From Sphyrna mokarran (taxonomy: Eukaryota): 64,000 bases of DNA. The notes under the pieces were generated by a model, which ran no database searches, was not told the origin of the DNA, and saw only the letters and a list, made by a program, of their open reading frames with translations. How positions within the stretch are numbered: the stretch's first letter is position 1; every line of letters starts with the position of its first letter. The translations under genes were made by a program, and so were the position numbers. The stretch is from contig JAGIQG010000034.1 in assembly GCA_024679065.1 (NCBI GenBank), positions 10,602,001-10,666,000 on the forward strand, read 5' to 3'. Of this stretch, positions 7,375 to 64,000 are shown one piece after another.

Positions 7375-7791
7375 TTAATTACCCTGAGTCGACATCACAT
7401 CTGTCGACTGTGGATCACAGAATGCCCCATATCGGCCATAAATGTCCTTTGCTCGGACTGCAAAGTAGTACTTGCTTCCGGACACAAACTGAGTGAGGGT
7501 GCAGGCCATGGGAAGCGGCAATGCCTTCACTTCGCCAATCTTCTTCCACTGGGAAGGGGTTGTGGTAGCAGGATCTTCATGGTAGGCGTAGAGGTGATAG
7601 CTGTCCACAAGCGCACAAGAGCGGTCTACTTCCAGGACACTCCAGGACAGGACTATTCCATTCTGACTCTGGACGCGGGCGAGCTTGAGGTGAGGCTTCT
7701 GAGGTGGAGAAGTATTAGCAGCCTCTGGAGGTAACCGCTGTGGTGGCTGGGCCTCAGGGAGTGGTGCCGGGTGGATGGGTCGAGGTGGCTC
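7375..7791 (-). CDS. ATF7IP: ATF7IP terminal coding exon (C-terminal fibronectin type III domain)
   Basis: [14 protein letters not shown]...[30 protein letters not shown]...[39 protein letters not shown] is near-identical to the vertebrate ATF7IP C-terminus. Acceptor tcaatacag|GAG, phase 0; stop TAA. Confidence 0.97.
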
Positions 7792-8069
7792 CTGTATTGA
7801 AACAGACAATGCAGAAAGTCATTTTCAAACTCGAACGCTGAGAAATTCTATGACATGACTCTGCAAAAAAAAAAAGCAATTAGTGTAACATTTATGAAGA
7901 AGCGAGGCTCCAAGAAATCTGACAAAGTGAGGCTCTGGAGAATCTAAATAAGTTCCATAAGTAGCGAAGGAATAAAGAAAGAAAAAGATATGCATGGGAG
8001 TGAAGAAGTAGAACGGGAGGAGGATTATGACGATCATAAATAATAAATTAGTGAGGTTGCTAGGTGAGA

Positions 8070-8362
8070 TATAGTGGCATAATGATTAGCACTGCTGTAT
8101 CACAACGCCAGAGTCTCAGTTCAATTCAAGCCTCTCTCTGTGTGGAGTTTACATATTCTCCCCGTGTCTGGGTTTCCTCTAGATGCTCCTGTTTCCTCCA
8201 AAGATGTGCAGGTTAGGTTGATTGGCCGTGCCAAATTGCTCCTTCGAGTCCAGGGGGCTGACAGGATAAATAAGTGGGGTTACGGGTATAGGGCTTGGAT
8301 AGGATTGTGATCTGCGCAGACCCGATAGGCCAAATGGCCTCTTCTGCACTTTAGATTTTCTA
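8070..8362 (+). mobile_element. HE1-like tRNA-derived SINE
   Basis: A/B-box-like head, core tgtggagttt...ctccccgtgtctg and CR1-type tail ggccaaatggcctcttctgcact. Confidence 0.75.
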
Positions 8363-9208
8363 CACTAATGTGCTGTAAACTCCATGTAAAATCTTACAAT
8401 ACTGATAAAAGTCACAGGATCCACAGGAATTATTTTTACGGCAAAGATTTGCAACTATAGAAGGAGTAATGCTTCAGTTCTATAGAGTCTTGATCAAATC
8501 TCATTTAAAGTACTACGTTCAGTTCAGGGCACTGCACCTCAAGAAGGATACATGAGCGTTGGAGTTTGCATAGAGCACAGTCACTAGAATGAAAACGGGA
8601 CTTAAAGGGTTAAATTATGAGGGCGTGTTGAATAAACCTAACTTGTATTCCCCCGAGTTTAGGGAAAAGATAACATTAAAAATAACTTGTTTGTATTACA
8701 ATCAAGAGTGCCAGCTAAAACATTTAATTCATTGATTGAGAATAGTCTTGAAACCAATCTCAAATGGAAGAATTCTGCAGAGAATCTACTATCAGAAGAT
8801 TCCACTGGTGGTGAGCAGAAGGGGAATGAACAAGAGTTTAAATGTTATTTTTGATAAAGTAAGACGTGGAATTTTGTAATCGCTTTTTCTCTATTGGTGT
8901 TTATATAATGCCTTGTGGCATTCACAGCTCTCAAGTGTTTTAAATTACTTCCCAACTTTAAGAAAATTAAATTAAAAAATAGGAGAAAGAGGTTTAGATC
9001 ATGATTTGAAGCAGCAGGTTGTACAAGTAAATAATAGAACTGTTAAAGTAGCAAGATTTCTGACCAAAACACCAGCTTTACAACTGCATACCCTGGCAAC
9101 TGTGAACATATTTTTATTATGCAGCTTAATAGAAGACATACTTTATTTTCCATGTCCATCATTACAATGGTGAAATTCCAAACAAGAAAGCCTTCTGCAC
9201 ATCAGGAC

Positions 9209-9438
9209 TCTGCCAGACAAGGGGCAGATATACCACTGTACACAGATCTCCTTCAGGAAGGTGCAGATAAACCATTGCATATAGGTTTCTGTCAGGAAGG
9301 TGCGGATACACTACTGTATACAGGTCGCTGCAGGCAAGGGGCAGATAACCATTATACACAAGTCACTGCCAGGCAAGGGGCAGATACATGACTGTACTTA
9401 GGTGTCTGCCAGATAAGGGGTGGATACACTATCTGTAC
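9209..9438. repeat. Degenerate minisatellite, about 39-40 bp x 6
   Basis: Unit approximately tgccaggcaaggggcagatacaccactgtayacaggtc. Confidence 0.85.
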
Positions 9439-9814
9439 CAGTCATCAGGCTGCAGAGTAGTTGGGACAGTTGCAAGGTTGCTTATCTCATTCCTGGACAC
9501 GTGTAGAAATGACTGCCCTCACTCATCACCGCTTTCCTGATAGAACGATCAAGCTCTTGGGGTCTATGCAGGGTTACCAACTGAGATCAGCTAGCTTAGC
9601 AAGATCTGTTCATCATCAACATCACATTACTACTGAATTTCATAACAAACTTTCTTGAAGCTGGGATTCTACCTACAAATTCAAACGATCCTGGCTGAAA
9701 CAGGTGGCAGAAAGCCTCCCCTCAAAGCTGGATGTCACCTGACTGATTGTGGCTAATGCTCTATTATTGTAAAGATTGCAGTGTGTGTATACATTGACAC
9801 TTAGCATGTCTTAC

Positions 9815-9921
9815 CTGTGTAGGCCGATGATGTACTGTGAACTGAGGCATATTGGGCATCACAGGAATGGAGATTACATTGTTCACAATGTAAGATGTTT
9901 GAGGCAGCCGGACTGACATAC
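9815..9921 (-). CDS. ATF7IP: ATF7IP penultimate coding exon
   Basis: (G)MSVRLPQTSYIVNNVISIPVMPNMPQFTVHHRPTQ resembles the mammalian VRVPQTTTYVVNN...LTVHHRPPQ segment. Acceptor tagcag| (tandem NAGNAG), donor CAG|gtaaga, phase 1 to 0. Confidence 0.92.
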
Positions 9922-10714
9922 CTGCTACGTAAAAGGCAATGATTTATTTCGGAGGATTGCACATCCCATCTTGCATCTGGGCAAGAGGGTGAGTTACTAC
10001 CAGAATATGTCTTTGTCTAGGTATCATAAAAAGGCACTTTAGTTGAAAAGCTTAAACTTCTTGTAACATTTTATTGCAGCCCATGAAAGATGATGTTGTT
10101 CAGATTAATGATTATAGCATTCCAAAATAAAACACCCAAAGAATTACCTTGGTCAGCAGTGAGCAGTTTGGTCAGGCAAACTGAAGGATGCAGTGACCTT
10201 ACACTTAATCAGTAGTTACATTACGCCCACTGAAGTAATATTCCAAAGAATAATTGTGAAGAATTTTTCATTAGGCATGTGAAAATAAGGGAGTAGAGAT
10301 CTTGTCCTGTCCAACAAATCAGCCACGGGTTCCCAGCCAACTGCCCCATCCTATTTAAATAATGAATACCTATAAATTTGTCAAAAAGTCATTATCACTG
10401 GTAAAATTCTTTACATCCTAGTAGTATTATCCAATTATTTAACAGTAGCCATGCTAACTGAGAACCTGAGTACATTATTATTGCAGAACAGCATACCTGT
10501 AAAAGGCCAGCCACTATAGGACAACTGGGATTTGTTCTTTGTGCTCAAAATCAAACCAAGACACAAAATCAGTCAAATAACAAAAATCCAGCTAGTCTAT
10601 TCCAGCCTGACTTGTAGTGCTGCGATGCCATAAGCATCAGGTTAAAAATGTTAGCCTACATTCAGAGGACCTGGATATCCTGGTGTATAAATCACAGGAA
10701 GGTAACATTCAGAT

Positions 10715-10965
10715 ACCAAAGGAAAAAATGCTGGAAAATCTCAGCAGGTCTGGCAGCATCTGTAAGGAGAGAGAAGGGCTGACGTTTTGAGTCGAGATAA
10801 CCCTTTCACAAAGCTTCAATGTCTGCCAATGCAGCTTTGACAAAGGGTCATCTGGACTCGAAATGTCAGCCCTTCTCTCTCCTTACAGATGCTGCCAGAC
10901 CTGCTGGGATTTTCCAGCATTTCCTCTTCTGGTTTTAGATTCTTCATCTGCAGTAATTTGCTTTT
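10715..10965. mobile_element. Palindromic element, probably Penelope-like terminal repeat derived, inserted in an old CR1 remnant
   Basis: Inverted arms of about 90 bp (atgctggaaaatctcagcaggtctggcagcatctgtaaggagagagaagggctgac / gtcagcccttctctctccttacagatgctgccagacctgctgggattttccagcat). Confidence 0.7.
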
Positions 10966-11275
10966 AGCATCCAGGTACAGTGAGCAACTAGGAAGGCAAA
11001 TGGTATTGTGAGTTCTTGCTACAAAGGGATCGAGTATAAGAATGAATAAGTCTTAGCAAAATTATACTCTATAATTATGGCTGTGTGGGGAGAGTTTCCA
11101 AATTCTTGTTCCCAGCACAACTCCAGCTTGATCAATAAGAAGGATCCAACTGCTGACTGTGTACCACAGGCCATTTACTAGCTTGTTTAAGTAATAATGC
11201 ACAAACAGATTAGAGATATACTGTTCAAGACTGATCTTTCCCTTACAGTAGGCTAAACTTAAACAGTATCCTTAC

Positions 11276-11497
11276 CACTAACAGGTGGCTGAGGGCTGGG
11301 TTGTCGCATAGCTTGGCTTTGCGTTGTGACAGCACGCACTGGATTGTGACTTTGGTATGGAGGGGGTGTTGTAAAAACTGTTGGGTTCGTACTTCCTCTT
11401 TGAAGAGTGGGGAGTGGTGGTCTCACAGGGGCCTGTGACGTTGGTGGTGGTGGCATCGGCGGACGTTGATGCTGAAGCATGTTTGTACTCGTTTGCC
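11276..11497 (-). CDS. ATF7IP: ATF7IP internal Pro/Gln/Thr-rich exon
   Basis: Acceptor ttctttttgtag|GG, donor AGTG|gtaagg, phase 1 to 1. Encodes QTSTNMLQHQRPPMPPPP...RPPLPTLQR. Confidence 0.88.
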
Positions 11498-12534: not shown

Positions 12535-12765
12535 CTGTTAGTACTCTACCTGCAGACACACTATGCACGTTGGTCGTCTGTATGGTTAACCCAACCGTAC
12601 CCGGGCTGTTCTGGGGCGCTGGCAAGTGGGGCTGTGTCGGTGTCTGCTGCGGAGAAATTCCCTGGGGAGCTGCAGGGGGTCTGACCTGCGGCTGGGTAAC
12701 AGTGGGTGAAGATACTGGAAGCTGAGTTGCTCCTTGGTTAACAGCCTGGTTCTGTTTCTTGGCTT
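12535..12765 (-). CDS. ATF7IP: ATF7IP internal Pro/Gln-rich exon
   Basis: Acceptor tattttcttgcccag|AA, phase 1. Two in-phase candidate donors (exon end 12550 gtagag or 12535 gtattg). Encodes AKKQNQAVNQGATQLPVSSP...TIQTT. Confidence 0.85.
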
Positions 12766-13879: not shown

Positions 13880-14150
13880 CTGGTTAGCATTGCTGCCTCA
13901 GTGCCAGGTGCTCATTTCTGGCCTTGGGTGCCTGTATGTGTAGAGTTTGCACGTTCTCCCGTCTCTGCATGGGTTTCCTCCAATTTCCTCTCAGTCCAAA
14001 GATGCATAGCTCAGGCAGATTAGCCAAGGTAAAAGCAAGGAATTACAGGGATAGGGCAAGTGGGTTTGGGCCTGGGTAAAATGCTTTTTTTGAAAAGTTG
14101 GTGAAACTCGATGGCCCAAAAGGCCTCTTTTTGTACTGTAAAGATTCTAC
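13880..14150 (+). mobile_element. HE1-like SINE
   Basis: tggttagcattgctgcctca head; gagtttgcacgttctccccgt core. Confidence 0.72.
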
Positions 14151-14329
14151 GACAGTCCCTTGTTGATTCTAGGGCAATTCTAGGTTGTTGCAAAAACATC
14201 GTTGCATGCTTATCTAATCTCAGAATTTATGTAATTTACCCATTACATAGCGGCAGACAGAAGGTACACAACTTCCATTAGATCTTAAATGCTCTCCTAT
14301 TTCCTAGTTCTACCTATTAGTTACCTCTT

Positions 14330-14810
14330 AGTGGAGGCTTTGGAGAGGGTACACAGGAGGTTTACCAGGATGTTGCCTGGTATGGAAGGCAGGTCTTATG
14401 AAGAGAGGCTGAGGGATTTGAGGTTGCTTTTGTTAGAAAGAAGGCGGCTAAGAGGAGACCTTATTGAAACATATAAGATGATTAGAGGTTTAGATAGGGT
14501 GGACAGTGATAGCCTTTTTCCAAGGATGGAGAAAGCTAGCACGAGGGGACATAGCTTTAAATTAAGGGGTGGTGGTTTTAGGACAGATGTCAGAGGTAGG
14601 TTCTTTACCCAGAGGGTGGTAAGGGTATGGAATGCCTTGCCTGCGTCAGTTGTAGATGTGCCAAGTTTGGTGGCTTTTAAGAGGTTAGTAGATAAGTTTA
14701 TGGATGAAAAGGGAATGGTTTAGGTTAGAGGGTCACTGCTTGTTCCTAATTGGTCGGTGCAACATCGAGGGCCGAAGGGCCTGTTCTGCGCTGTAATGTT
14801 CTATGTTCTT
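14330..14810 (+). mobile_element. Young CR1 LINE 3' end, 5'-truncated
   Basis: VEALERVHRRFTRMLPGMEGRSYEERL...FFTQRVVRVWNALP and a gttctat tail. Same family as 50236-52341. Confidence 0.92.
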
Positions 14811-15190
14811 GTTACATACTTTTATCACTGACATGATTTAATCCTTAAACACCAAGGCTGCTACTACTCCTCCAAACAGCTGCACTGAAGCTAGGGGTTG
14901 AATAGATAAGAGAATGGCTGAAATGCAATTCTGCGATATGACCTCCTTGCAGCAGTTTACTGAATACAGGAATTAAAAATTAAACTTTGAGAAGGCAAAT
15001 TCATAAGATGATACAAATACTTATCCCTCTTGAGACAATATTCTGCACTGATACCAGGTGAACTTCTAAGCAAGTTGGCCAGAAATACATAACAATTGCA
15101 GACAATGTTTGCAGATTTGACTAGAGTGGTCTTGTATCACATACTAAGTATAGGAAGTATGAAAAGCTGTAGGATCACCAAGTTTCATAC

Positions 15191-15269
15191 CTTGTGCAGA
15201 GACATCATCTTCATCATCACCCGTCAGGTCAATAACCGCTCCCATGTCACTTCCTCCTGTCTTTGCACT
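15191..15269 (-). CDS. ATF7IP: ATF7IP exon with SUMO-interacting motif (VIDLT plus acidic patch)
   Basis: ttttctttcag|AGT...CAAG|gtatga, 79 nt, phase 0 to 1. SAKTGGSDMGAVIDLTGDDEDDVSAQ matches the MCAF1 SIM. Not in the ORF track. Confidence 0.93.
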
Positions 15270-17880: not shown

Positions 17881-17882
17881 TG

Positions 17883-28143: not shown

Positions 28144-28401
28144 NNNNNNNNNNNNNNNNNNNNNNNNNNNNNNNNNNNNNNNNNNNNNNNNNNNNNNNNN
28201 NNNNNNNNNNNNNNNNNNNNNNNNNNNNNNNNNNNNNNNNNNNNNNNNNNNNNNNNNNNNNNNNNNNNNNNNNNNNNNNNNNNNNNNNNNNNNNNNNNNN
28301 NNNNNNNNNNNNNNNNNNNNNNNNNNNNNNNNNNNNNNNNNNNNNNNNNNNNNNNNNNNNNNNNNNNNNNNNNNNNNNNNNNNNNNNNNNNNNNNNNNNN
28401 N
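28144..28401. other. Assembly gap (258 N)
   Basis: Run of N. Confidence 1.
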
Positions 28402-31260: not shown

Positions 31261-32684
31261 TTAAAGCTAAAGAGAAAATCCCAGCTACTCCAATCTTTCA
31301 GCCCCAGGTACAATTCTAGCAAATCCCTTCCTCACCCTCTCCTTGGCTTTAAAAATTTTTCTTAATGATGCCCAGAATTGGATAATACTTAAGAGACTTC
31401 TAAAAGCTTTTTTTTAAATAACTCCCTTTCATCACTTTAGGGTGCTATTTATACAGCCAAGATGCTCGAGGGTTAAAAGAAAATTATATAGGCTTGCTCT
31501 GTCACCTTCAAAAGATTCTCATACACAATGGTACATGAACTCATGTGTTTTTCTACTCTTGCATCCCTTTACTTTAAAGATTGTACTCTTTAATTTATAT
31601 TAGTTTATAAATAATTTTGATAAGTTAAAATATGAATTCTATGAATCTTTGTAGAGTATTAAATATTATTGCAATATAAAGTTCATCTTATTTGTGCAAA
31701 TGAAATGCCTCCATTGTCCTGGTGATTGAAATTGCTAAAGGAGCAAAGTAAATGCACATGGGAATATGGGTACATTTTATGTATTGAACAAACTGTCTTC
31801 CATCTCTCAAAACGCTGGAAGTGACTTCAGATATTCTTTGCTCCCATTATGTGCAGGTTTTTGACCCTCCATATGTGGTATGCTCAAGTACCAAACACCA
31901 ATGTCATTCAACATCCATGTCCAAGAGGGACTGCAATTTAACTCCGGCCCTTGTTGAAAAAGCAGCATTGCATGTACTTGAAATCAGTTTGTTTTCTGTC
32001 ACAGGTTCCTGTATACAACTGACATTATTAAACTAGCACCGTCAAGAGACTAGTGTGGCACTATTATATTCAAACCAATGCAATGCTTGGGGGGTGGAAG
32101 GGAGGGGCTCCATAAATTTACTGCCTGATCTAGTTTTTCTTTCCAGCTCTATAATTAAAATGCAGGTTTCACTGTAACTGCATCTATTCTGAATTGATAT
32201 TTGCAAAATTCATGCATTTTGTTAAGGACACAACAAAGGTTCAGCAAGTCAATAGCACTGGTAGGACAGCAAAGTTTGTGTGCTGCTTTTCCAGGTACTG
32301 GCCTTCAACTCTGTAGATGTGAATCCATTGTCAACTCCAAAACAGGTTCCCTGCTTCATCAACTTTGCTGTCCCCCTTTTAACCAAGCAAATTTAAATGG
32401 CAAGCAAAATATATCTGAGCCAAGCAGATAAAGCAGGGAACCATTACAACACTGATCAAAAAAAATTAAAGGTTGATCTTTATAAAGTTAGCCAACCTCT
32501 ATTGATCAAAAGCTCAATTTAAAGAAACAAAACTGACCCAGAGTCATGTTCAAATTTAACACTGAAACTGCAATGTTATCATACTTTACAGCTGTTCATT
32601 TCAGAACTATATATTTTCTTTTAATACATTATTCATTTTTAAATTTTATGTAGCTTATTGAGTTTTGTTCACAACACTTTAAGT

Positions 32685-33929
32685 TCATTTTAGTCGTTCC
32701 TGCTTTATGACATAGTTCTGCAAGATGATCCCAGTATTTTTTCTGGAGACAGTATTGGGATTTAAAGTCACTGTAGAAGAAGTTGTTCCTGCTTGTGGGT
32801 CACGTGCTACAGAACTTGGAGCTGTGTAAATATAGTTGAACCCTACATTGTCTAACATGTCTGACCAAGCCCGGTACTGAAATTCTGCAGCTCCCCAGTA
32901 GTTTCTAATACTGGATTCTGAACGGTGGCCAGTAAGTGCCATGATCTCCCGTGCTCCAAGGCCAGCGTCACAGAGGAGACGAACAGTTGTAGTTCTGAGG
33001 GAATGGTTGGTGTACCTCTGGGAGAGTCTGGCAGCAATACTGATTCTAGGCATCATGCTTCCAAGATAGTTTACTCCCATTGGCTCCCTTTTATACCACA
33101 CAGATTGTTCTCGTAACTGCTCTGGTGTTAATTTTAGAGGGTGAAGGTAGAATGCAGGAGGGTCTGGTGGCAGTTTTGATATATAAAGTTCAAGCGAAGT
33201 GACTGGGCAGTTTACATCTCCTGGCATATCGTACATCCGGCCCAATTTCAATGGGTCCTCCTGGCTTTTACTTTTCCCAGTATACTTCAGCATTGCATAG
33301 CGTCGTCCATTGGGATCTCGCTTAATGACAAAAGCATCTGGAGGAAGGTCCCGAAGGATTTCCCGCCCACGCTTTGCAAAATGTAACTGCAGATCAAACC
33401 AGACTTTGTTCACAAGTGCAAGGGGTGTGTGAAGTCCCAGGACACCAGATGTCCTGATCTTTCGAAGATCGGCTGCATTAATAGGGGGATGATGATTTGT
33501 TTCATCCTTTCCTTGCTTTCTGAGTATCTTCAGCACTCCTAGGAACACATTATTGGCACTACTGAATTCCTTGTCTTGCATTAGGCAGATCTGTCGGCTG
33601 TGAGGAGGCATTTTAAGGTGCCTGTTTAAGCCTGCCCGGATAGATTTGTAACTGGAAATGCTATAGGTGTTACCATCGTGATTCCTTACAGTTCCATAAA
33701 ATTCTCTCAAAATACTGTTGAGTTCTTCCACTGACATAGTTTCAAATTTTTCATCTTTGCCCTTTTCAATAAGCCACTGTTTAAGAATATTTACAGCCCA
33801 GTCTGTCTGCTTACGGGTATTCTTCTCATTGCGTTCTTCCTCAAGTCCAATGAGATCTTCTTCAGTCACACTAACATGCCGCCTGGCTCCATCTAAAAGT
33901 TCGTTGCTGGCAATTTGTTCTTCTGTCAT
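32685..33929 (-). CDS. YR1: Crypton-type (DUF3504, KCTD1-N-like) tyrosine recombinase-fold protein nested in an ATF7IP intron
   Basis: Uninterrupted 414-aa ORF. N-terminal NTRKQTDWAVNIL...LREFYGTVRNHDGNTYSISSYKSIRAGLNRHL; catalytic boxes FAKRGRE (R187), TNHSLRTT (H309/R312), TGHRSESSIRNY (H335/Y344). Frame stays open upstream to about 34055. Confidence 0.92.
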   Translation of the reverse strand: MTEEQIASNELLDGARRHVSVTEEDLIGLEEERNEKNTRKQTDWAVNILKQWLIEKGKDEKFETMSVEELNSILREFYGTVRNHDGNTYSISSYKSIRAGLNRHLKMPPHSRQICLMQDKEFSSANNVFLGVLKILRKQGKDETNHHPPINAADLRKIRTSGVLGLHTPLALVNKVWFDLQLHFAKRGREILRDLPPDAFVIKRDPNGRRYAMLKYTGKSKSQEDPLKLGRMYDMPGDVNCPVTSLELYISKLPPDPPAFYLHPLKLTPEQLREQSVWYKREPMGVNYLGSMMPRISIAARLSQRYTNHSLRTTTVRLLCDAGLGAREIMALTGHRSESSIRNYWGAAEFQYRAWSDMLDNVGFNYIYTAPSSVARDPQAGTTSSTVTLNPNTVSRKNTGIILQNYVIKQERLK

Positions 33930-35298
33930 TTGGTCCTCAAAACTGAGCAGTGTGTTGCCATCGAAAATGCCATAGGTGTAGAGTGGGGGGTGAGACGCTG
34001 TTTTTTCGGACAGCTGTGAATTGCGGAGTAATACGTAATGTTTTGATATAATTCTTTAAATTAAAAAAGCTACACAAAATAATTCAGCAGGTGGCACTCG
34101 TTAAGGTTTCTTAGCAGAGGTGTGCCAACATTCAATAGCGCACACCCTATCAACCCATCTCTTTTACACATTACAAACCATGGCATTACATGTTGTCATA
34201 CAATGAACAGCAGAAGGGCTTGAGTTTGCTTTCAGTTCGACTAAAATGATGCTAAATCTCTTTTGTAACTGCTGGACCTTTTAGCTATTGAGATATTTGA
34301 TGAAGGAAAAGAAAATCAAATGGGGGGGAAAACACACTGATTTTATATATGTATTCTCTAGAAGAACTGGAAAAGTTTCAGTACCGCAACAAGAAAATCT
34401 GCATCAGAAATTTGAAATGGCTTACGAGTTCTACAAATGAACCTTGACTGACTGAACAGCTTCCACTTCTGCACTGTGACACGCTGAGCAACGAGTTACC
34501 CGAATTTAAGGCTGTTACAAATGTGTGGCACGGCTGTATCCCAATCAGAATGCGTCACTCAGTTGAAGGTTTCTGAAAACTTTTGACAGCATCTTGGAGG
34601 ATTGAATCCAGCTGTGCTGACGAGTGCTGTTTTGTTTAGAGAATCTTTCCAGTTTATGTAGAGAATGCACAACATAATTACCTTTTCCCTCTTGCCACCC
34701 AAATGATTTTTTTTTGTTTTAAACACGAGCACTCACCAGGATGCTTTCCACCACTCTCTTCTTTCTGGTGAGGCTAAAGACGTGAATGTACAACATAGTA
34801 CAGATATGACAACCACCTCCCCCGCTCCATCCCATTACACCTCTCTGGGTATTTGTGGAAGGGCTTGTCACATTTATTGTCTCAATATACTTATTCTGAC
34901 CACTAAGAAATCAAAAAAATTCCCCAAAACATAAAAATCAAATGTTGTGGCTTTAATTCTGCCAAGGTTGTCTGTAGATTTTGCAGAAAGGTGGATTTGA
35001 AAACAAAAGAGTTGGTTATATTTAAGTAGAAAAAATGTTAACTTACAGAACAACAATATTACCCCTTAGAACTTTACTGGGCAAACGTAACAAGCTGATC
35101 CATGGTGGATTACTGAGAAAGGAACAATGTGACAATTGGGTTCGTTTGTACAGATTCTTCTGTACAAACAGCAACCACATTTTACCCAAAGGGATAACTA
35201 TATTATATCAACTGGCTTGGCCAGGAAAGACAATGAGAGAGACTGCTGCCGAACATAACCGGTGGTCTGATCTGCATTGATAAATGTACTATACCCAC

Positions 35299-35390
35299 CT
35301 GATTGCCACTGGGTACTGGTTTTTTAGCAGCTGGTGACTCTGTTGGAACAGCTGTAGAATGTCTCTGGGTGGCCTGGCTGAAGCTGCTCT
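35299..35390 (-). CDS. ATF7IP: ATF7IP internal exon
   Basis: ccattaacag|AG...AATCAG|gtgggt, 92 nt, phase 1 to 0, bridging the flanking exons in frame. Encodes SSFSQATQRHSTAVPTESPAAKKPVPSGNQ. Confidence 0.85.
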
Positions 35391-41520: not shown

Positions 41521-42198
41521 CTACTCTGGAGGCTCCTGTATTGGTGCTGTCTGAACTGACAGTTAATGGCTGACTTGATGATCCAGAAACTTGCCCCTGG
41601 CTGCAAGTCTGTGAAGGCCTAGGTTGTACTGGTGCTCTAGTATTAGAAGGGCTAAAATGTCCCGGGGAACCCAAAGATGGTTGCACTGTTCGAGTAGTCT
41701 GAGGTGAAAGAATAGATTGGGTACTGGTCACAGAAGCAGTCTGACCTGAAGCAACATTACTTATCTGCATTGGCCCCATATTTCCAGGGGATTTCCTTTG
41801 GATTCCTGGGCTTGGCAACGAAGGACTAGCACCATTTGCTTTTGCTACATTTGTTGATATCTGCGATGCCAGTGGCTTGGACAGGTTGTTTAACGTGGGC
41901 TGGGACTGAACAGGTAAAAACTCAATTCCAGGTTGCTGGTTCGTCATCAAGGTATTTGCCGAGGGCTGCAGAAGCTGAGGTTGGGAAGACATTGCCACTG
42001 GAACTGTAAGCAATACTGGCACTGACTGGAGAGATACTGGCATAGGCTGGTTACTACCGGAGGTCGACAGCGACTGATTGTTTCCTACTACTGCTGCAGT
42101 TGCTGGGAGCACAGGAGTGACCACAGCACCAGATGTCCCTGCATTCTGAGGCTTAGACTGTCCGCCAACTACCTGAGGTGGTGTGAAGTTTGTAATAC
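41521..42198 (-). CDS. ATF7IP: ATF7IP large Ser/Pro/Gln-rich exon
   Basis: ttgctgttgcag|GT...GTAG|gtgagt, 678 nt, phase 1 to 1. Contains ATF7IP-like segments QPMPVSLQSVPVLLTVPVAMSSQPQLLQ, IEFLPVQS and PSPGIQRKSP. Confidence 0.92.
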
Positions 42199-43259: not shown

Positions 43260-43348
43260 CTGTATTATTGGAGTTTGCAGAGTGCTGGGCTGATGCTACA
43301 CTGTCTGCCATATTTCTTCTCAAGTCCAGCATCTGCCTTACTGTTCCA
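43260..43348 (-). CDS. ATF7IP: ATF7IP internal exon
   Basis: ttttcccttccag|T...ACAG|gtactt, phase 2 to 1. GTVRQMLDLRRN matches mammalian GTVRQMLESKRN. Confidence 0.9.
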
Positions 43349-46049: not shown

Positions 46050-46162
46050 CTGCGACACTGCACGCTACCAGAAGCGCTAGAAGGGTTATAGGTTTTGCTG
46101 GGAGAGACAGGTTGCGTAGATTGGAGCCCAGATGGTTGCTGAGGTGTGGAGGTGACTGGATT
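46050..46162 (-). CDS. ATF7IP: ATF7IP internal exon (most 5' canonical exon found in window)
   Basis: ttcatttaatccag|AAT...CGCAG|gtaaga, 113 nt, phase 0 to 2. NPVTSTPQQPSGLQSTQPVSPSKTYN...QCR, where PVSPSKT resembles mammalian PVSPGKT. Not in the ORF track. Confidence 0.85.
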
Positions 46163-48930: not shown

Positions 48931-50235
48931 GTTTTCTTTCTACATATTTGTTGTTAATTGACACCAAAGGCTACACTTAAAGAAAGGTTTTCCTTGCTTG
49001 TATCACATATGCAAGAATACAAATCTCAGGGGAAAGTGGTAATTGTCATAATTGCCATACTTAATGCATTCAGTTGCAAAATACTACTGTCACGATAAAG
49101 ACACTTGCCAATGCCAATTGCAATATCTGATGAAATAAAATAAGGAACAAGGAGCGAGTATGAGGGAAGCAGGTATGAGGGGGAAAAAAAAACAGTAGGA
49201 TTGCTATAAATAGACATACATGCAAACCAACAGTTCTATGTAATGTCTCAAAAAAAAACTTGCCAAGTGGCAAATTAATTGTTTTACACAGCGTTTATCC
49301 AAATTCAACTGAAAATGAGGCGAGTTTTGTTAACACGAAAACAAAAGCGCAACACAAAAGTGATGAAGTGAGTGAAAAACGTGCAGACTCTGCACAGTGA
49401 CCCAAGCCAGGAATCGAACCCAGATCCTGGTACCGAAAGGCAGCAGTACAAACCACTGTACCATCCATAAACAAATTGTTTGATGAGCAGTTAATGTATA
49501 GGATCAAAACTTCAAACAAATTGTCACTGAATTAATTTCTACCCAATCTTTATCAGATATGGTGTAAATAAAATGTTGAGAGATGGTTATATAATTTTCC
49601 CTGGCTTCACTTAGATTAATCTCATGTAACAGGGGTGAATAAATAACTGCTAAATATGTGTAATATCTAAGAGACACATCAATAAATATGTCTACACAGT
49701 GCATTAAAGGACAAACATAGGGTACCAGATCATTCAAACAAATGTCTATTGGTATAAATTTACGTCAAAGCCAAGTCCTTCAGTAACATAGTTGCTTTCT
49801 CATCTTCTACTTCACATTTGTATTTGACATAAAACAGCAATTTTTTTTTTACAAAACCATATCGATTTTGCACATGTATTGTTCTTCAGCATTATTATGC
49901 TGACTGTATTTCATGGCCTTCTACACAAAATGCTATAAGTATGATCAACTTCCAGTATTTTGACCAGAAACTTAACTGGATCATCCACACAAATACACGG
50001 ATTATAAAAGCAGCGTCAGAGGCAGGGTGCAACTCACTTCCTGACTCATGCCTTCTACAAGGTGGACAAGTTAGTAGTGTGGTGCAGTATTGCCCAGTTG
50101 CCTGGATGAGTGCATCTCCAATAATGTTCAAGTTCAACATCATCTTAAACAAAGTTGCCTGTTTTCCTTCTTGTAACCTTCTTAAACATTCATGCCCTTC
50201 ACCAATGGTTTACATCAGTGAGATGAGAGTGATTG

Positions 50236-52341
50236 GACTAGGGAACTACAGGGACTGGGAACATCTGGAATGTGGTGCTTATTCAAGGAGCAGCTGCTGC
50301 GAGTCCTTGAGAAGTATGTCCCTGTCAGGCAGGGAGGAAATGGACGAGTAAGAGAGCCTTGGTGTACGAAAAAAGTTGATTTGCTGGTTAAGAAGAAAAA
50401 GGAGGCTTATGTCAGGATGAGGCTTGAAGGCTCAGATAGGGCAATGGATAGCTATAGATTAGCCAGGAAGGAGGTAAAAAGTGAATTGAGGAGAGCTAAG
50501 ATGGGACACGAGAAGATGTTGGCTGATAGGATTAAGGAGAATCCTAAAGCTTTCTTTCGATATGTTAAGAATAGAAGATTGGTTAGGGCAAGATTAGGGC
50601 CAGTCATAGACAGGAGTGGGAAGTTGTGCGTGGAGCCTGAAGAGATTGGAGAGGCACTGAATAAATATTTCTCTTCGGTATTCACGCAGGGTGATGTAAA
50701 TGTAGTTATGGAGAGCACTGAGGTACAGGGTAGCAAACTGGAAAGTATTGAAGTAGATAGGGAGGATGTGCTAGATATTCTCGAGGTTTGAAGTTGGATA
50801 AGTCCCCTGGGCCGGACGGGATTTACCCTAGGATTCTCTGGGAGGCAAGAGAGGAGATTGCAGAGCCTCTGGCTCTGATCTTCAGGTCCTCGTTGGTTAG
50901 GGGTGTGGTTCCGGAGGACTGGAGGATAGCGAATGTGGTCCCATTGTTTAAGAAGGGGAAGAGAGACCTTCCAGGGAATTATAGGCCAGTGAGTCTTACT
51001 TCTGTTGTGGGCAAGGTATTGGAGAGAATTATTAAGGATAGGATTTATAGTTATTTAGAGAGAAATGAATTGATTGGGGATAGTCAGCATGGTTTCGTGA
51101 AGGGTAGGTCATGCCTTACTAACCTCATTGAGTTTTTGAGAAAGTGACCAGAGAGGTGGATGGGGGTAAGGCGGTTGATGTAGTATATATGGACTTTAGT
51201 AAGGCTTTTGATAAGGGGGCCCATGGAAGACTTCTACAGAAAATGCAGATGTGTGGAATAGAGGGTGATTTAGCTAATTGGATTAGAAAGTGGCTGGCAG
51301 ATAGAAGACAGAGGGTGGTGGTTGATGGGAGATATTCATCGTGGAGTTCGGTGACGAGTGGTGTGCCTCAGGGGTCTGTTTTGGGGCCCCTGCTGTTTGT
51401 AATTTATATAAATGATCTGGATGAGGGTATTGAAGGATGGATTAGTAAATTTGCAGATGACACTAAAGTCGGTGGAGTGGTAGATAGTGAAGAGGGGTGT
51501 TATAGTTTACAGAGTGACTTGGACAAGTTGCAGAGCTGGGCCGAGAGGTGGCAAATGGAGTTAATGTGGAAAAGTGTGAGGTAATGCACTTTGGCAGGAA
51601 CAATAAATGTGTAGAGTATAGGGCTAATGGTAGGGCTCTTAATAGTGTTGAGGAACAGAAGGATCTTGGTGTATGTGTAATAGATCCCTGAAAGTAGGCA
51701 GTCAAGTGGATAAAGTTGTTAAGAAGGCTTATGGAGTCTTAGCTTTTATTGGTAGGGGGATTGAATGTAGGAGCCGCAGCATAATGTTGCAGCTGTACAA
51801 AACTCTAGTGCGGCCGCACTTGGAGTATTGTGTGCAGTTCTGGTCGCCACATTATAAGAAAGATGTGGAGGCATTGGAGAGGGTACAGAGGAGGTTTACC
51901 AGGATGTTGCCTGGTATGGAGGGCAGGTCTTATGAGGAGAGGCTGAGGGATTTGAGGTTGTTTTCGTTAGAAAGGAAGAGGCTAAGAGGGGACCTGATCG
52001 AAACATATAAGATGATTAGAGGTTTAGATAGGGTGGACAGTGATAGCCTTTTTCCTAGGATGGAGAAGCTAGCACGAGGGGACACAGCTTTAAATTAAGG
52101 GGTATGAGTTATAGGACGGATATCAGAGGTAGGTTCTTTACTCAAAGAGTGATTAGGGAGTGGAATGCCCTGCCTGCAGCTGTTGTAGATGCGCCAAGTT
52201 TGGTGGCGTTAAGAGGTTAGTTGATAAGTATATGGATGAGAAGGGAATGGTTTAGTTAGGAGGGGCATTGCTTTTTATTTTGGTCGGCACAACATCGAAG
52301 GCCGAAGGGCCTGTTCTGTGCTGTATTGTTCTATGTTCTAT
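50236..52341 (+). mobile_element. Young 5'-truncated CR1 LINE with reverse transcriptase (frameshifted ORF2)
   Basis: [37 protein letters not shown] and FADD motifs over four ORFs; gttctat tail. Confidence 0.95.
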
Positions 52342-53480
52342 GACTGCCCTTGACATCAAGGCAGAATTTGACCAACTGCAGCATAAAGGATTCCTAGCAT
52401 AACTGGAGTCAATGGGATATCAGGGGGAAAAATTCTCCAATGGTTGCAGTCATACCTAGCAGAAAGGAAGATGACTATACTTGTTAATCATTTGAATCCC
52501 AGGATGTTACCGCAGGAGTTTCTCAGGACATGTCTAACTATCTTAGCTGCTTGATCAATGACCTTTCCTGGATCAACAGGTCAGAAGTGGGGATGTTTGC
52601 TGATGATTGCGCAGTGTTCAGCACCATGTGCAACTCCTCACATATCAAAGCAAAATGCAACAAGGCCTGGACAACATTCACATTAGGCTATTTCACACCA
52701 CATAAAAGTGTCCAGCAATGACCATCTCTAATAAGGGAGAACACAATCATTTTCCTTTGATATTCAACAGTCTTACGATTGCCAAACCCCTCACCAACAT
52801 CCTGGGTGGTTACCATTTATCAGAAATGAACTGATAGCCATATAAATGTTAAGCAATTCCACAATGCTTAACTCACATCTAGACTCTACAGAATCTGTCC
52901 ACCATCTACAAGACACAAATAGGGAATGTGATGCGATGTTTCCCAGTTGCAGCTACAATGCCCAAGATTTGACACCACCCAGAATAAAGCAGCCCACTTC
53001 AATGGCACCTCACCCACAATCTTCAACATTCAGTCTCTCCACCACTGACAGGCAATAGCAGCATGTTCAACGTAGAAAAATGCATCGCAGTAACTCACTC
53101 ACCAAGCCTCCTTAGCACTTTCCAAACACACGACCTCTACCATCTAGAAGGTCAAGGGCAGTGGATGCACGAGAGCACCATCCCTCTATGTCAAGCTCCC
53201 CTCAAAAATCATGCAGCATGACTTGCATTATTGCTGGGTCAAAATCATGAACACCTGTCCCAACAACCACTGTACCATCCATGAACAAATTGTTTGATGA
53301 GCAGTTAATGTATAGGATCAAAACTGCAAACAAATTGTCACTGAATTAATTTCTACCCAATCTTTATCAGATATGGTGTAAATAAAATGTTGAGAGATGG
53401 TTATATAATTTTCCCTGCGGCTGGTCCTACGCCATATGGACCACAGCAGTACACAGCAGCAGTTCACTGCCAAATTCACA
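52342..53480 (+). mobile_element. Old LINE (CR1/L2 group) RT remnant that hosts the young CR1
   Basis: GMFADDC motif. gagagtgattg (about 50225) continues as gactgcccttgacatcaaggcag. A related copy lies at about 54680-55860. Confidence 0.65.
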
Positions 53481-55860: not shown

Positions 55861-56418
55861 ATAACTCGGACACTGACCGAAAAAAAGCATTTGATTTTTT
55901 TAGTTAATATTTGCACTTAATTCCATCAAGTAGGTGACTAACCTTTTCTCATAACCCCCCAATGCGATAAGAGAAATGATGAAAATTAAGAGATAGTAAT
56001 TTTGCTCAGCAAATCAGAATAAAATCCAATGGGCCATATGTATAGGCTTAAATAATTTTTAATAATGAGACAACATGGTAACAATTTTGTTACTAAAGTT
56101 TAGTTGCTTATTGCACGTGAAATCTCCAAAAGCTAAAAGGTTAAGTATTACTGACAACCATACACAATAAATCCATTTATAGCATAAACAGAAAGTGCTT
56201 TGAAAGAACCAGCTCATAAATTTAAACATCTTATATGATGGGAAGTAATACTAACACTTTTGCCCCTCGTCAATTTGTTTCACAACCTTACAATCTCGTA
56301 AGTCATTTTTACACTACTGTTAAGATTTTAGCAGCATAATAGGTTGATGTTGACGTTACTGCAACTTTGACAGTAGACATTGGTAATGTTGAAGGTGTAC
56401 TATGAGGCAGTTCAACCT

Positions 56419-56685
56419 TCAATTCTTCTTGGTTTGTAACTTCAGCTTCCGTCTGGAGGCTATAGTCACTGCTTTGTGCACACAAACACTCTGCTGTCTC
56501 AAGGAAGAAGATGATCGTGAACAAGTGGCATTCTTCTTCAAAGGATTTGGAGGCTGCAAACAGTCAGATACTGCTTTCATTTCAGTCTTTTTGTAGGACA
56601 TCATTGCATTACTGCCATTTCCCATTCGCTCCTTAATTAGCTCTTCATCAAAGCCACGATTGTGAAGAGCAGCTACACTGCTGAC
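56419..56685 (-). CDS. YR2 exon B: C-terminal recombinase box II region and stop
   Basis: Acceptor tgtttgttgtag|GTC, phase 0. VSSVAALHNRGFDEELIKERMGNGSNAMMSYKK supplies the YR C-terminus (L..G..E..I.ERxGH.S...Y pattern) missing from exon A. 88 aa then stop. Confidence 0.85.
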   Translation of the reverse strand, partial: VSSVAALHNRGFDEELIKERMGNGSNAMMSYKKTEMKAVSDCLQPPNPLKKNATCSRSSSSLRQQSVCVHKAVTIASRRKLKLQTKKN

Positions 56686-58789: not shown

Positions 58790-60085
58790 GCAGGACATAG
58801 GTAGATTGGACAGATATGGCAGATGGAATTTAATCTTGATAAATGCGAGGTGATGCATTTTGGGAGAAAGAATGTAGGGGGAAGTTATATGATAAAGGTA
58901 GACCTATTAAGAGTACAGAAAAACAGAGGGACCTGGGGGTGCAGATGCACAAGTCTTTGAAGGTGGCAGAAAAGATGGAGAAAGTTGTGAAAAAAGCTTA
59001 TGGTATGCTAGTCTTTATAGGAAGGGGTGTAGAATACAACAGCTGGCGTCTAATGTTGCAGTTGTGTAGAACGTTGGTTAGACCTCATTTGGAATACTGC
59101 GTCCAGTTCTGGTCACCTTACTACCGGAAGGACATGGAGACCCTGTAGAGAGTGCAGAGGAGGTTTACCAGGATGCTGCCTGGTATGGAAGGTCTGGGTC
59201 GCGAGGAAAAGTTAGGCAAATTGGGGCTGTTTTCTTTAGAAAGACAGAGACTGAGAGAAGATCTATTAGAAGTTTACAAGATTCTGAAGGGTATAGATAA
59301 ACAGTGGTAAGCTTTTTCCTAGGTTGGAATCAAATATCACGAGGGGTCACGGGCTTAGGATGAGAGGGGCAAGGTGTCATTTGGGTGTTAGAGGGAGGTT
59401 TTTCACATGGAGGGTTGTAGGGGTTTGGAACGCACTGCCAAGTAAGGTGGAGGAGGCAGGCACGCTGGAAATACTTAAGAGATTTAAGAGGTACTTAGAG
59501 AGGCACATGAGCAGAATAGGGATGGAGGGATATAGAAGACTGATTTAAATAGAGATCATGAGCCTTGGGGCGTTTCTGGGAATTGCATAAGTTGTGCATA
59601 TTATTGATGTATTTCTCTTTTATCCTACAGGTACTTCAGTCCACTCTGTTGTCCAACAAGGGGCATACACACGATGGGTCATGAGAGGAATGCTTTTGGA
59701 TTTTGAGAGTAGCCTGGTGCTTCACATTGTTAGCGTACGCTTAAACTGGACCAGTTGATGGGCAACACGACAGCTCAGTGACCATCACTGTTGCTGTGCA
59801 GGTACAGGGATTTGGGCCGGTATCTGTGGGAGTTTGCGCATTCTCCCCGTGCTTGTGTGGGTTGTCTCCGGGTGCTCCAGTTTCCTCCCACACTCCAAAG
59901 ATGTGCTTTAAGGCTGATTGGCAGAACAAATTGTTCCTAAATTGTCTCCCCAATTTGGTTCCAATGCAGATTTCCATAAACATGGACAAGGGTCATGGGT
60001 GAAAGTTGGAAAGTTAAAATGGCAGCACAGGCTTGTTGGGCCGAAGGGCTTGTTTCCTGTACTGTGTTGTTCTTTGTTCTTTTGC
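58790..60085 (+). mobile_element. CR1 3' end with a SINE-containing extended 3' region (copy 2)
   Basis: LVRPHLEYCVQFWSPYYRKD...WNALP, then the same unique segment, SINE core and tail as 19178-20435. Confidence 0.88.
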
Positions 60086-60589
60086 ACTTCAGAATATAAC
60101 TTCATTATTTTAATATAGTTAAACAAGGGCAGGGGGTATACTTGTAATTTACATGTTGATCTGTTCCAAGGTTCTGCGATATTAACATCAATCAGCCACT
60201 AGTACCAATACTTGAAGTTTACAATTTTTTTAAGGTCAAATGACAAAGTTTTTTCAATTTCTGAGTAGAATGTTAATTATTATGAATAACATACAAATAC
60301 AAATTCAAAAACTTAATGGCATGTTTTTAATTTTATCCTGCATAGATAAGCAATTTAAGTCTGGGGATATTAAACTGAAAATTGAGGTAATAACCAGGAA
60401 GGATGTTGACATATAAACTGCACAGTCAGATTGGGATGAAAATTTAGTTAACTGCTTTCACCGAAAAAAAGCATCCTCAGGCTCACTGCAATGCCAGAGA
60501 CTGGCAACACTGTTGGAATAAGATTCTCAAACGTTCCATTTATAATTTGGATAAATTGAGGCAGAAACATAAAAGCAGATTACCTGAAT

Positions 60590-60940
60590 GGCTGTAAGTT
60601 GGGAGAGGGGAGTGTGCAATGAGATCTGGGTGCCATTGTGCACCAGTCACTGAAGGTAAGCATGCTAGTGCAATAGGTGATAAAGGCAGCAAATGGTATG
60701 TTAGCCTTCATTGCAAGAGGTTGAGAGTACAGGAGAGGGATGTGTTGCTGCAAATTATACAGGGCCTTGGTAAGGCAACACCTGGAGTATTGTGTGCAGT
60801 ATTGGTTTCCTTCTCCAAGGAAGAAAGTTCTTACTCTCTAGGAAACGTAGCGAAGCTTTATTAGACTGACTGCAGGGATGGCGGGACTGATATATAGAGA
60901 GAGATTGACTAGGTTGGGATTGTTTTTGCTGGAGTTCAGG
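60590..60940 (+). mobile_element. Degenerate CR1 3' fragment ending at a poly-G run
   Basis: cacctggagtattgtgtgcagtattggt (HLEYCVQ.W). Confidence 0.7.
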
Positions 60941-62465
60941 GGGGAAGGGGGGGGGGGGGGGGGGGTTTGTCATATCAAATAATTATAGCAAAGATGATAA
61001 ATTAATGGACCAAAACTCATCTCTAACAACCAAGCCAGTCTTTCCTGTTGCATTTGTGGACAGCCCTTTCTGCTGCCCCAACCTGCAACCCCCCCAACCC
61101 CAGCACTTTATCCTAGAATTTATCACCCTTTATGAACTAGTTTTCAATATCAATTTTAAAATTAACCGGGCCCATTTAAGCTCATTCCTCTGGTCTGATA
61201 CAAAATAATTAAAACAAAGTTTAATATTTTTACATAGCGAGGTTCCATCAAACCTCTGGAGATTTTTACGAGAATAATTCAAAATCCAAATTTTAACTGA
61301 CTGAAAATATAGTGCAAGAAATGTAATCTAAATAGAACCCACTTTTAACCCTAATTCAATATATTTTGTTACTAGGAAGTGGCAGCTATACATAGCACGT
61401 GTACATAATGTTTATTGCAACGATCTTAGGTAATCAATGTCAATTGTGAATTAATCTAGCTGCCCTGTCAGTGCTCTCACCAATAAAATTTCAGTAATTG
61501 GAAACAAGCTACAGCAGTAACAGACGCAAATCGATGGACGGATTACAACATCTGTGTAAATCACTGCCTACTGAAAAGTAAACATCTGAAAAAGCTCTGT
61601 GGGTTGAAATATGATAGTGTTTCTATTCTGACTGGTTATATTTGGTCTTAGGATTACAACACTGGAAGTCAGTTGATTTAAGTGGCATCATAGACTTAAA
61701 TAAGCTCATATTTCCACTGAAACAACAGTAAAATCTCAAGCTGGCGGAAATAATCTCAGAAATCTGGCTACCAGACTGCATTGAGAAAATATTTATCTTC
61801 TCATACTGGGTGCAGGTAGGTGTAATCATGACCAACCATGCCTGCTATTGCAGCAAATTTACTTCTGGGAGGACAAAAGCTCCACCATCAATTTCAAAAG
61901 GATCGTAACCATATGAAGCTGTCTCTTAATGGATCCCAATTTAAAACTCAGTTAACATATGGAATCAGATCCTTTTGGTGGCAAGCTAACAAATGCATAT
62001 AGTAGAATTTTTGTTTATTAGTTACAATTCAAGCTCCAGGTCTGCCTGCCATTAATCATGTGGCAAGTGGATGATGTTCTGGAATTACTGGATCAATGTA
62101 CAGAAATTAGCAGAAACCTACAGGAAAGAGGAGTGTGAGGGAATGGGGTCTCTTAAGCAAGTAGCAAAAGCAAGCCGCAGAACCAGTGTTGGTGGTTAAA
62201 ATGGGCAAAACATAAAGCAGAGCAATTAAACTTAAACTATATGCAATTTAAGTTTCCTTCCAGTTCACAATTGTCTAAAAAAATTAGGCTTTGTCACTTG
62301 ACCTTACGCATTCTGTACTTTAAAGCAATATGACTAATAAAAAACAATCCTATGATGGGTGAACTTTTACAGACTGGCTAGATTGTATTAAAATGCATAT
62401 AATAGTACGAGGCAATAAAATCCCTGCTTTTGCAACATTGATAACAAAATACTTTTTATGCTTAC

Positions 62466-64000
62466 CCTTCCAGATTGGCCAGTATGTCGCCCCGAAATGC
62501 CACCCGCCTCACAGATTTCTTTGGAGTAATGCTCCAGAGTGTGAACTCCAATAGCTTGCAGGCAGAACTCCAGCCGCCCAGGAAGAGGGCGCCGGTAAAA
62601 TGGACCATCTCTTGGAACCATGCTGAGGTAGCGACGAAAGAGAGAAACAATGCATCTTGGGTTGGATAAGTCTGCGTACTGCCGGATATGTCCTTTTGTT
62701 CTTTGGATTCCATCTCTGTAAGGCTTTGCCACAAATTCCAAATATTCTCCAATTTCATCAGCTCCAAAGCTGAACTGATCAACCATCAATTTATTGTGTT
62801 CTGCTGCTGCATGTACACCAAAGACTTTACAGAGGTAGAAATAGACAGCATAACTGTAACTTCTTGCATCTTGAAGTTGAAAAACTATTTGCCACAGTTT
62901 TTCTTCTTCTTTCTCAGAGTAAGGCTGTGCTTGTTTCCTTACTATACCAATCCCCTGTTGTTTAAGTTTTCTCATTTGCCTGTTGAGGATAGACCGAAAT
63001 GCAGCATATTCTGTGTTATATTCATTAAAGAAATCAATGTCCAGTCGCTGGCAGGTTTCACGCAAGTATCGCAAAATGGAGCAGCACAGGAGTCGGAGAG
63101 AATTAGGCGGATAAAATGATCCATCACGCCGACGCACTTCCTCCACAAACTGGCACAACCAGAAATTCAGTTGGTTGTGAGTTATTTCATGAGACAGTTC
63201 CGGCACATAAAGGGATGGCTTGCATAATTCCACGCTATTTTCCATAAAGTAATTATTTCGATTCCTAGCCCACTCATCCCAAGCTCGAATGCCCCAGGCG
63301 GTGGCTCTCCTTGTATTGTATGGCATTGTGTTATCTGGAATAATTATCTGCTTTTTGTCTGGTGCAGGTTCATAATTGCCTTTGGGAGTTCTATCATCCT
63401 GCAGCTTCATAGAAGGTTCAGCACACGTATTAAAGAGAACTCTACTCGCTAGCAATACTGTACGTTGATTTCCTGAAATTCTTTTGTTGTATCTAATCTT
63501 ATTCTTTTGTAATATTACATGTGGCTTACTTAAATCAGGCTCATCAAGGACACAGGGAATCCTCTTCTCAAGTAGTACTGTGTGTTGTTGGTCTGTGTAA
63601 GATTTTCCTAAGATACTACAAGGACCATTATGCTCTAGTGAAAGTAGCGACCTTTGCTGGACAAGAATATTATCAACCTGTGGTTTCTCTGTAGTTAAGT
63701 GGACAAAAGTACTCTTGGAAGTTCTACTAATTTTTAACGCAGTCTCATGCTCCTTCATTATAATGTCTCTGAATGAGTTATAATGACCTTGATTATTTAT
63801 TAAAACAGCCTGCTGTTTATCTGTAATGAGTTTCTGTTTAATACTTAAAGGTATATTATGCTGTAATAGAGCCTGTTGTTCTAATGTAACAGCTTTGCCC
63901 AATTCAGCAGAAATCCTACAATCTGGCAGTGGAACTTTCTGCTTTATTAAAGGCTCACCAGATCTATTATCTTGTAATGCAATTTGTCGATTGTATAATG
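62466..64000 (-). CDS. YR2 exon A: Crypton/DUF3504-type recombinase-fold protein, 5' end beyond the window
   Basis: Frame open from the window edge (LYNRQIALQDN...). Contains NTRRATAWGIRAWDEW, LNFWLCQFVEEVRRRDGSFYPPNSL, EEEKLW, FGVHAAAEH and HTGQSGR. Ends at consensus donor AGG|gtaagc, phase 0. Confidence 0.88.

Follow-up and report, generated by a model that had tools for sequence, protein, structure and literature searches.

The intron-borne Crypton of ATF7IP, the gene of a SETDB1 cofactor, is the closest described relative of the locus analyzed here (published work is cited throughout from the accessible portion of each source). Kojima and Jurka 2011 (PMC3212892) described this element as intact in zebra finch and chimaera and suggested that it may be translated within ATF7IP and retain activity, with degraded remnants in human, horse, kangaroo and platypus, and Frith 2022 (PMC9004415) dated it to the gnathostome ancestor. 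We analyzed ATF7IP of Sphyrna mokarran in a window, by which we mean the whole stretch of 64,000 nucleotides (contig JAGIQG010000034.1, positions 10,602,001 to 10,666,000), and found two Crypton-type tyrosine recombinase (YR) modules in ATF7IP introns on the ATF7IP (minus) strand, YR1 being the 3′ and YR2 the 5′ module. The published element (PMC3212892, PMC9004415) corresponds to YR1, with which it shares the intron, the intact state in birds, alligator and chimaera, the chicken frameshift and the gnathostome age; one element is treated there, whereas the second module (YR2), built of two exons and of separate origin, and the wide spread of fusion models are added here. A first-pass annotation of the window had pointed to a Crypton reported in a non-therian ATF7IP intron, and such an element is indeed in print, but its remnants extend to human, horse and kangaroo.

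KIAA1958 likewise combines two divergent Crypton-derived alternative exons, used in isoforms, within one gene, but both of its domains are single-exon and without the catalytic Tyr, and its host part has no known function, whereas ATF7IP has one intact and one intron-split head, offers its FN3 tail as a third option and encodes a SETDB1 cofactor. In KRABINER-type fusions (bioRxiv 10.1101/2020.05.07.082677) a transposon enzyme has also been captured by alternative splicing onto a silencing domain, with a DNA-targeted repressor predicted; these are tetrapod transposases, mostly joined to KRAB, with no Crypton, ATF7 or recombinase in the accessible main text, and cognate repeat ends are not known as targets of the ATF7IP modules. 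QRICH1 in Zincore (PDB 9HJT) and ZMYM2/3/4 have the same DUF3504 fold (hidden Markov model E 1.9e-23; structural Z 12.6 and 13.5) and are non-catalytic members of a DNA-bound coregulator complex, but they represent a separate, older domestication with many introns and act in trans. The earlier proposal of a cis fusion of components that mammals bring together in trans is doubtful, ZMYM2 being a separate domestication and the shark genome having five multi-exon ZMYM/QRICH1-like loci. Active CryptonA elements share the recombinase fold, but the YR modules are single-copy, sit at a fixed locus and have no convincing terminal repeats.

The architecture is a variant of the KIAA1958 arrangement and of the host-transposase fusion; YR1 is known, while YR2 and a sister gene on contig C113 are apparently undescribed. 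No second ATF7IP recombinase module was found in literature on Crypton/DUF3504 domestication, transposase capture or ATF7IP isoforms, covered mostly through open-access text, including the accessible parts of PMC13465315, PMC5753468, PMC12129022 and PMC10380595. The suggestion that the two-module arrangement may be new is supported for YR2, which was not found in print, but YR1 has been published with its intact frame, as has the idea of a catalytic fusion, and KIAA1958 already has two DUF3504 exons. Judged by their sequences, both modules are domesticated, single-copy and conserved. In the reading that we favor with moderate confidence, YR1 and YR2 are alternative last exons that replace the FN3 adaptor of ATF7IP by a recombinase-fold head with a predicted grip on DNA, which would steer methylation of histone H3 lysine 9 (H3K9).

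Two recombinase modules in ATF7IP introns

The two stop-free DUF3504 frames annotated on the ATF7IP strand both scored above the Pfam cut-off for PF12012 (29.7 bits), YR1 with 48.8 bits and YR2 with 30.7 bits, and YR2 additionally matched the QRICH1 domain (E 1.4e-15). YR1 (stop-free frame 34055-32688, 456 residues, minus strand) lies, as annotated, between the exon ending at 35299 and exon 10, whose motif we take to be a SUMO-interacting motif (SIM), and its acceptor could be placed at 34013 (canonical, phase 0). The frame of YR2 (63998-62391, minus strand) encodes 536 residues inside the window and 648 with the flank. Its intronic position, formerly presumed, was borne out by five ATF7IP coding exons upstream of the window, and it lies in intron 5, directly behind exon 5, with which the SETDB1-binding coil ends. 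It is not the single unit first described but two exons, YR2a and YR2b. The donor of YR2a is at 62466, intron read-through accounts for the final 25 codons of the earlier open reading frame, and the exon at 56685-56419, which encodes the end of the recombinase domain, had been missed. YR2a comprises a fast-evolving linker of ~280 residues, the core-binding domain and most of the catalytic domain. The YR2 acceptors (64166 and 56685) and the donors of exons 5 and 9 are canonical and all in phase 0. In the YR2b tail (window 56321-56480), the reading frame of S. mokarran, Mustelus, Scyliorhinus and Cetorhinus differs from that of Heptranchias and Pristiophorus, and the old tail frame is still open to ~56315 in S. 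mokarran.

The minimal SETDB1-binding fragment of human ATF7IP comprises residues 574-666, and two ATF7IP chains bind each SETDB1 (PMC12167477). Aligned on the residue equivalent to C631, the corresponding shark stretch stops 4-5 residues short of the exon-5 junction, which places the SETDB1-binding region upstream of both modules, so that both fusions would keep it. ZMYM2 and MGA dock on the FN3 domain, a hub that nuclear retention of SETDB1 does not require (PMC7706265).

The contrast first noted between one intact and one degenerate module held on inspection of the catalytic residues. YR1 keeps the full R-H-R-H-Y set (R215, H337, R340, H363, Y372), whereas profile alignment of YR2 revealed His for the first Arg, Gln for the His of HxxR and Asn for the second His; its Tyr, encoded in YR2b, is kept but replaced by Cys in two lamniform sharks (P0131, P0155). 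Because three catalytic residues are replaced and the Tyr is Cys in two sharks, YR2 is predicted not to be a working recombinase.

YR1 was matched by 132 longer proteins, and among the 120 listed, 107 were ATF7IP-YR1 models carrying the SETDB1-binding domain PF16788, from sharks, one ray, ~65 birds (counted by hand), turtles and the frog Ascaphus, with 64-95% identity. The five catalytic residues were kept in 107/107 (Arg), 106/106 (His), 106/106 (Arg), 99/99 (His) and 98/99 (Tyr) of those models that cover the respective site; one pigeon model has Cys at the catalytic Tyr, and eight models end early (six from three galliform species, chicken included, one from hoatzin and one partial). When shark is compared with bird, turtle or frog, identity is 70-82% in the YR1 core, versus 26-46% in host exons 1 and 8. 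The other 13 of the 120 listed matches were teleost or unnamed proteins (45-50% identical), and the catalytic Tyr was absent from 12 of these 13 related fusions. Teleost models P0114-P0126 fuse YR1-like recombinases to MORC3, ZMYM4, A2ML1, zinc-finger and SET/hAT genes. For YR2, 16 of the 26 core differences listed from 40 of 637 rows were silent compared with 22% of sites being silent (P = 1e-5). These patterns indicate purifying selection on the transposon-derived frames. For YR2, no tetrapod or teleost orthologue was recognized in searches that were length-limited or clustered (11 of 150 matches were named in one of them).

Structure models support a two-domain tyrosine-recombinase fold for both modules, matching Cre, Xer and QRICH1 at Z 10-16. 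The YR1 model aligned with the QRICH1 chain of Zincore (Z 12.6, root-mean-square deviation (rmsd) 14.1, 247 aligned) and also matched Cre and Xer, with a predicted local distance difference test score (pLDDT) below 50 from residue 346 on, a region that includes the active-site Tyr. For YR2 we used the model of the Cetorhinus orthologue P0155, where pLDDT was mostly >90 over residues ~300-640, behind a disordered linker; it matched Cre and Xer (Z 16.4; for Cre, rmsd 6.5, 280 aligned) and QRICH1 (Z 13.5). A sequence search of solved structures returned nothing useful for YR1 alone or for P0001.

Origins of the modules

Genome searches located each module at one locus only, with unique intron stretches upstream; neither is present in multiple similar copies, as a mobile Crypton would be, and the repeats flanking the modules were short, two-copy and at chance level. 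In the unique stretch 5′ of YR1 (window 34556-34803), a contig of run X4 reached a depth of 22, which may mark a promoter or an extra exon. The 23 DUF3504 matches in the genome fall into 11 loci (YR1, YR2, a pair on C1215, single loci on C1326 and C113, and five with multiple exons), these counts being lower bounds. The labels KIAA1958-like, KCTD1-like and ZMYM/QRICH1-like, which we give to the other loci from their architecture, are presumptive. The two DUF3504 exons 30 kb apart at C1215:123380058-123411355 are likely KIAA1958 a and b, and isoform b has been reported missing in chimaera (PMC3212892).

The sister gene of YR2 (C113:7263338-7267997) is free-standing, has two exons with the same intron and is 66% identical to YR2, with saturated silent sites between them (proportion of differing silent sites, pS, 0.83; of replacement sites, pN, 0.19). 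It has stops immediately 5′ of its ATG, is 93% identical to a sawfish protein and belongs to a cluster of 20 members at 90% identity from sharks and rays; its nearest relative outside these groups is coelacanth LOC102346282. The DUF3504 genes listed in 2011 do not include it, and two unplaced chimaera fossils in that paper, AAVX01521991 and AAVX01132927, could be YR2 or its sister (PMC3212892). The sister gene is not located at ATF7IP2, and ATF7IP2 itself (C749, 190 kb, exon 1 to FN3) yielded no YR module at E 0.5. Among 80 of 231 frames scanned near the sister gene, one Pfam match appeared, a kinase exon that presumably resembles BMPR2.

In a quick tree of 72 rows, none of them a full DUF3504 domain of ZMYM or QRICH1, and in which KCTD1-like and KIAA1958-like rows sat on long branches, YR2 and its C113 sister formed a clade (98) beside the coelacanth gene (96) and then invertebrate Cryptons, the closest intact relatives being invertebrate elements with the full motif set (e.g., Ptychodera P0130/P0356). 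YR1 grouped with fish CryptonA elements (98), far from YR2, and the branches of both modules followed host relationships. Because the tree places them in different Crypton clades, YR1 and YR2 are, on this sequence evidence, two independent captures from separate CryptonA lineages.

Proposed alternative last exons and competing accounts

The first-pass annotation envisaged three alternative products of ATF7IP, and phase-0 splice sites, separate poly(A) signals and the annotation of both fusions in Heterodontus agree with this; the two Heterodontus proteins share 507 identical residues and diverge at the exon-5 junction. ATF7IP-YR2 models made up four of six longer matches (Mustelus, Heterodontus, Heptranchias, Rhinoraja), with a fifth in Scyliorhinus canicula, all cartilaginous fishes, and four of these five species fuse at the same junction. 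The fusions are present in RefSeq as automatic models.

Junctions were sought in five runs (X1-X4 and X6) of six presumed to be RNA, none being recorded as RNA; all are assembled contigs, which drop rare forms, so the absence of a join is weak evidence. YR2a was covered by a single contig in 4/4 runs and spliced at its 3′ end, and the usual join of exon 5 to exon 6 was recovered in X2 (30/30 letters) and X6 (26/30). The junction check called for earlier thus had a divided outcome: one of four runs (X3) contains exon 5 joined to YR2b with YR2a skipped (24/26 loose letters matching 56658-56683), but no exon5-YR2a join was found among the 15 joint rows inspected of 16, and no exon9-YR1 join among the 15 inspected of 201, where repeats dominated.

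These data leave appreciable room, short of an even chance, for an account in which YR2 starts independently in ATF7IP intron 5 and, like the C113 sister, is for the most part a gene in its own right, nested in the host; the fusion would then be a minor side product, and YR1 would be the one genuine alternative tail. The X1 and X2 contigs join YR2a, across a 777-nt GT-AG intron, to a non-coding intronic exon whose end is at 64944 and which has no in-frame Met, the Met of YR2a being at codon 9; contigs of X3 and X6 were unspliced 5′ of the YR2a acceptor; the sister stands alone, with stops before its ATG and 20 cluster members; and YR2 is annotated without ATF7IP in four other species (P0002, P0003, P0131, P0155). 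Set against this are the fusion models of five species, four of them with a common junction, the exon5-YR2b join in X3, an acceptor in frame with exon 5, and coverage of intron 5 in X1 at a depth of 5-9 all along from exon 5, so that the upstream exon may belong to partly processed ATF7IP RNA rather than mark a separate start.

Several observations weigh against the reading of YR1 and YR2 as alternative last exons more generally: besides the missing joins and the fusion-free YR2 annotations, the RNA status of the runs is a guess; a 1449-nt X3 contig (32614-34061) over the YR1 exon extends beyond the acceptor by 48 nt of intron sequence; in X2, a run near-identical to the genome, YR1 fragments had a depth of ~3, like introns; and automatic models also fuse ATF7IP to young elements (the Narcine pogo), so that a model alone proves little. 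YR1 was represented by fragments only in X1, X2 and X4, the X3 contig of exon 9 terminates precisely at the donor 35299, and one contig per module ends ~10 nt past its ATTAAA (32625, 56063).

That YR1 might be a working site-specific recombinase or a topoisomerase-like nicking enzyme, brought to heterochromatin by ATF7IP-SETDB1 for programmed cutting or rejoining, appears improbable to us. Its R-H-R-H-Y set is nearly fully kept, while the Tyr was lost in 12 of the 13 related fusions and in all domesticated DUF3504 genes of the 2011 list (PMC3212892); yet 221 of 324 core columns are near-invariant among 99 full models, which gives retention of all five residues a background chance of ~15%, and the model set is mostly birds. 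Moreover, chicken, hoatzin and two further galliforms have a truncated C-terminus, one pigeon model has Cys, mammals have lost the gene, and the structure model is unreliable past residue 346. We give still less credence to the modules being truncation switches, in which loss of FN3 leaves forms that retain nuclear SETDB1 but recruit no FN3 partners, and the fold itself is secondary: the dispensability of FN3 for nuclear retention (PMC7706265) and the X3 exon5-YR2b form, with only ~88 recombinase residues, fit such a role, but the strong core conservation and the YR1 catalytic residues would be superfluous for mere truncation. Recent or neutral insertions, with fusions as annotation artefacts, are hardly credible; transposon frames are indeed joined to unrelated fish genes and to Narcine ATF7IP in gene models, but single copies, unique flanks, vertical descent, an excess of silent change and saturated silent sites relative to the sister speak against it, and the multi-copy, non-syntenic or neutral state that the first annotation had set as a refutation was not observed.

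If YR1 and YR2 are alternative last exons, ATF7IP would keep its SETDB1-binding coil while the FN3 adaptor is exchanged for a recombinase-fold head. Gene models support an exon9-YR1 fusion of ~1280 residues and an exon5-YR2a-YR2b fusion of ~1160 residues, and joins in presumed RNA contigs suggest a free YR2 protein of ~650 residues made from the intronic exon as well as a short exon5-YR2b form. The fusions would be expected to bind SETDB1; with two ATF7IP chains per SETDB1, a single complex could hold an FN3 and a YR head, or two YR heads. YR2 would act as a non-catalytic binder and be partly a nested gene; YR1 would act chiefly as a binder, with an active site that may remain functional. The likeliest function is an exchange of the targeting head, as has been shown for KRAB-transposase fusions, since the coil is retained and FN3 is dispensable for nuclear retention. 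Protein-assisted DNA binding is also possible, because QRICH1 in Zincore sits on DNA with a zinc-finger protein (PDB 9HJT).

Other ATF7IP models carry further transposon domains. Narcine isoform X8 (P0329) has a pogo-type domain at the exon-9 donor also used by YR1, and a Catharus model (P0042) carries a pogo/Tigger DNA-binding domain. A Cololabis saira model (P0118) has a degenerate CryptonA recombinase fused after the SIM exon, placed with fish elements in the tree and likely a third capture or an annotation artefact. A wider view, to which we assign little probability, takes ATF7IP as a gene that has repeatedly trapped DNA-binding heads from transposons (YR1, YR2, the teleost third Crypton, the ray pogo domain). 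Mixed in the two-ATF7IP SETDB1 complex of non-mammalian vertebrates, these heads would aim H3K9 methylation at DNA sequences without KRAB proteins, and YR1 would still be an active recombinase, retained since the first jawed vertebrates, that cuts DNA at heterochromatin targets.

Host gene and biological meaning

ATF7IP runs on the minus strand, and the window covers its 3′ two thirds. Mapping of related proteins onto the window and a 200-kb flank gave 14 coding exons, of which 6-14 are inside the window and 1-5 lie upstream, at 83.9-69.8 kb in window-extended coordinates; the closest named protein to coding exon 1 is from the shark Mustelus asterias (96% identical).

Table 1. Features of the ATF7IP locus in window coordinates.
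Feature	Position	Strand	Basis or remark
YR2 exon a	62466..64000, starts 64166 (166 nt beyond window)	-	567 codons; contig-covered in 4/4 runs
YR2 exon b	56419..56685	-	88 codons + stop; last recombinase-fold helices; joined to exon 5 in X3 contig
ATTAAA poly(A) signal after YR2	56058..56063	-	X1 contig, by length, ends ~10 nt beyond
ATF7IP coding exon 6	46050..46162	-	usual partner of exon 5; exon5-exon6 joins in contigs
ATF7IP coding exon 7	43260..43348	-	protein mapping
ATF7IP coding exon 8, S/P/Q/T-rich	41521..42198	-	protein mapping
ATF7IP coding exon 9	35299..35390	-	phase-0 donor common to YR1 and SIM exon
YR1 single terminal exon	32685..34013	-	442 codons + stop; CryptonA tyrosine recombinase; one 1449-nt X3 contig covers it
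ATTAAA poly(A) signal after YR1	32620..32625	-	X3 contig stops at 32614
ATF7IP exon 10, VIDLT motif	15191..15269	-	protein mapping
ATF7IP exon 11	12550..12765	-	boundaries from sequence reading
ATF7IP exon 12	11276..11497	-	boundaries from sequence reading
ATF7IP exon 13	9815..9921	-	protein mapping
ATF7IP last exon, FN3 domain	7375..7791	-	PF16794, E 1.5e-41

About 31% of the window consists of repeats, by matching within 654 kb of sequence. Decayed fragments of CR1-like long interspersed nuclear elements occur at 1-958, 14331-14816 and 50231-53203, and their longest frames of ≤189 residues agree with the earlier description of the surrounding transposons as decayed. A masked stretch (28144-28401) falls in the intron 3′ of YR1 and is uninformative.

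A conserved ATF7IP isoform with a recombinase-fold head is a direct candidate for aiming SETDB1 at DNA outside the KRAB system. Chicken provides a natural C-terminal truncation of YR1, and YR2 and its sister represent a further Crypton domestication, present in cartilaginous fishes and with a relative in coelacanth. Should YR1 prove catalytic, vertebrates would have a domesticated tyrosine recombinase that is still active, in contrast to the Tyr-less genes of the 2011 list.

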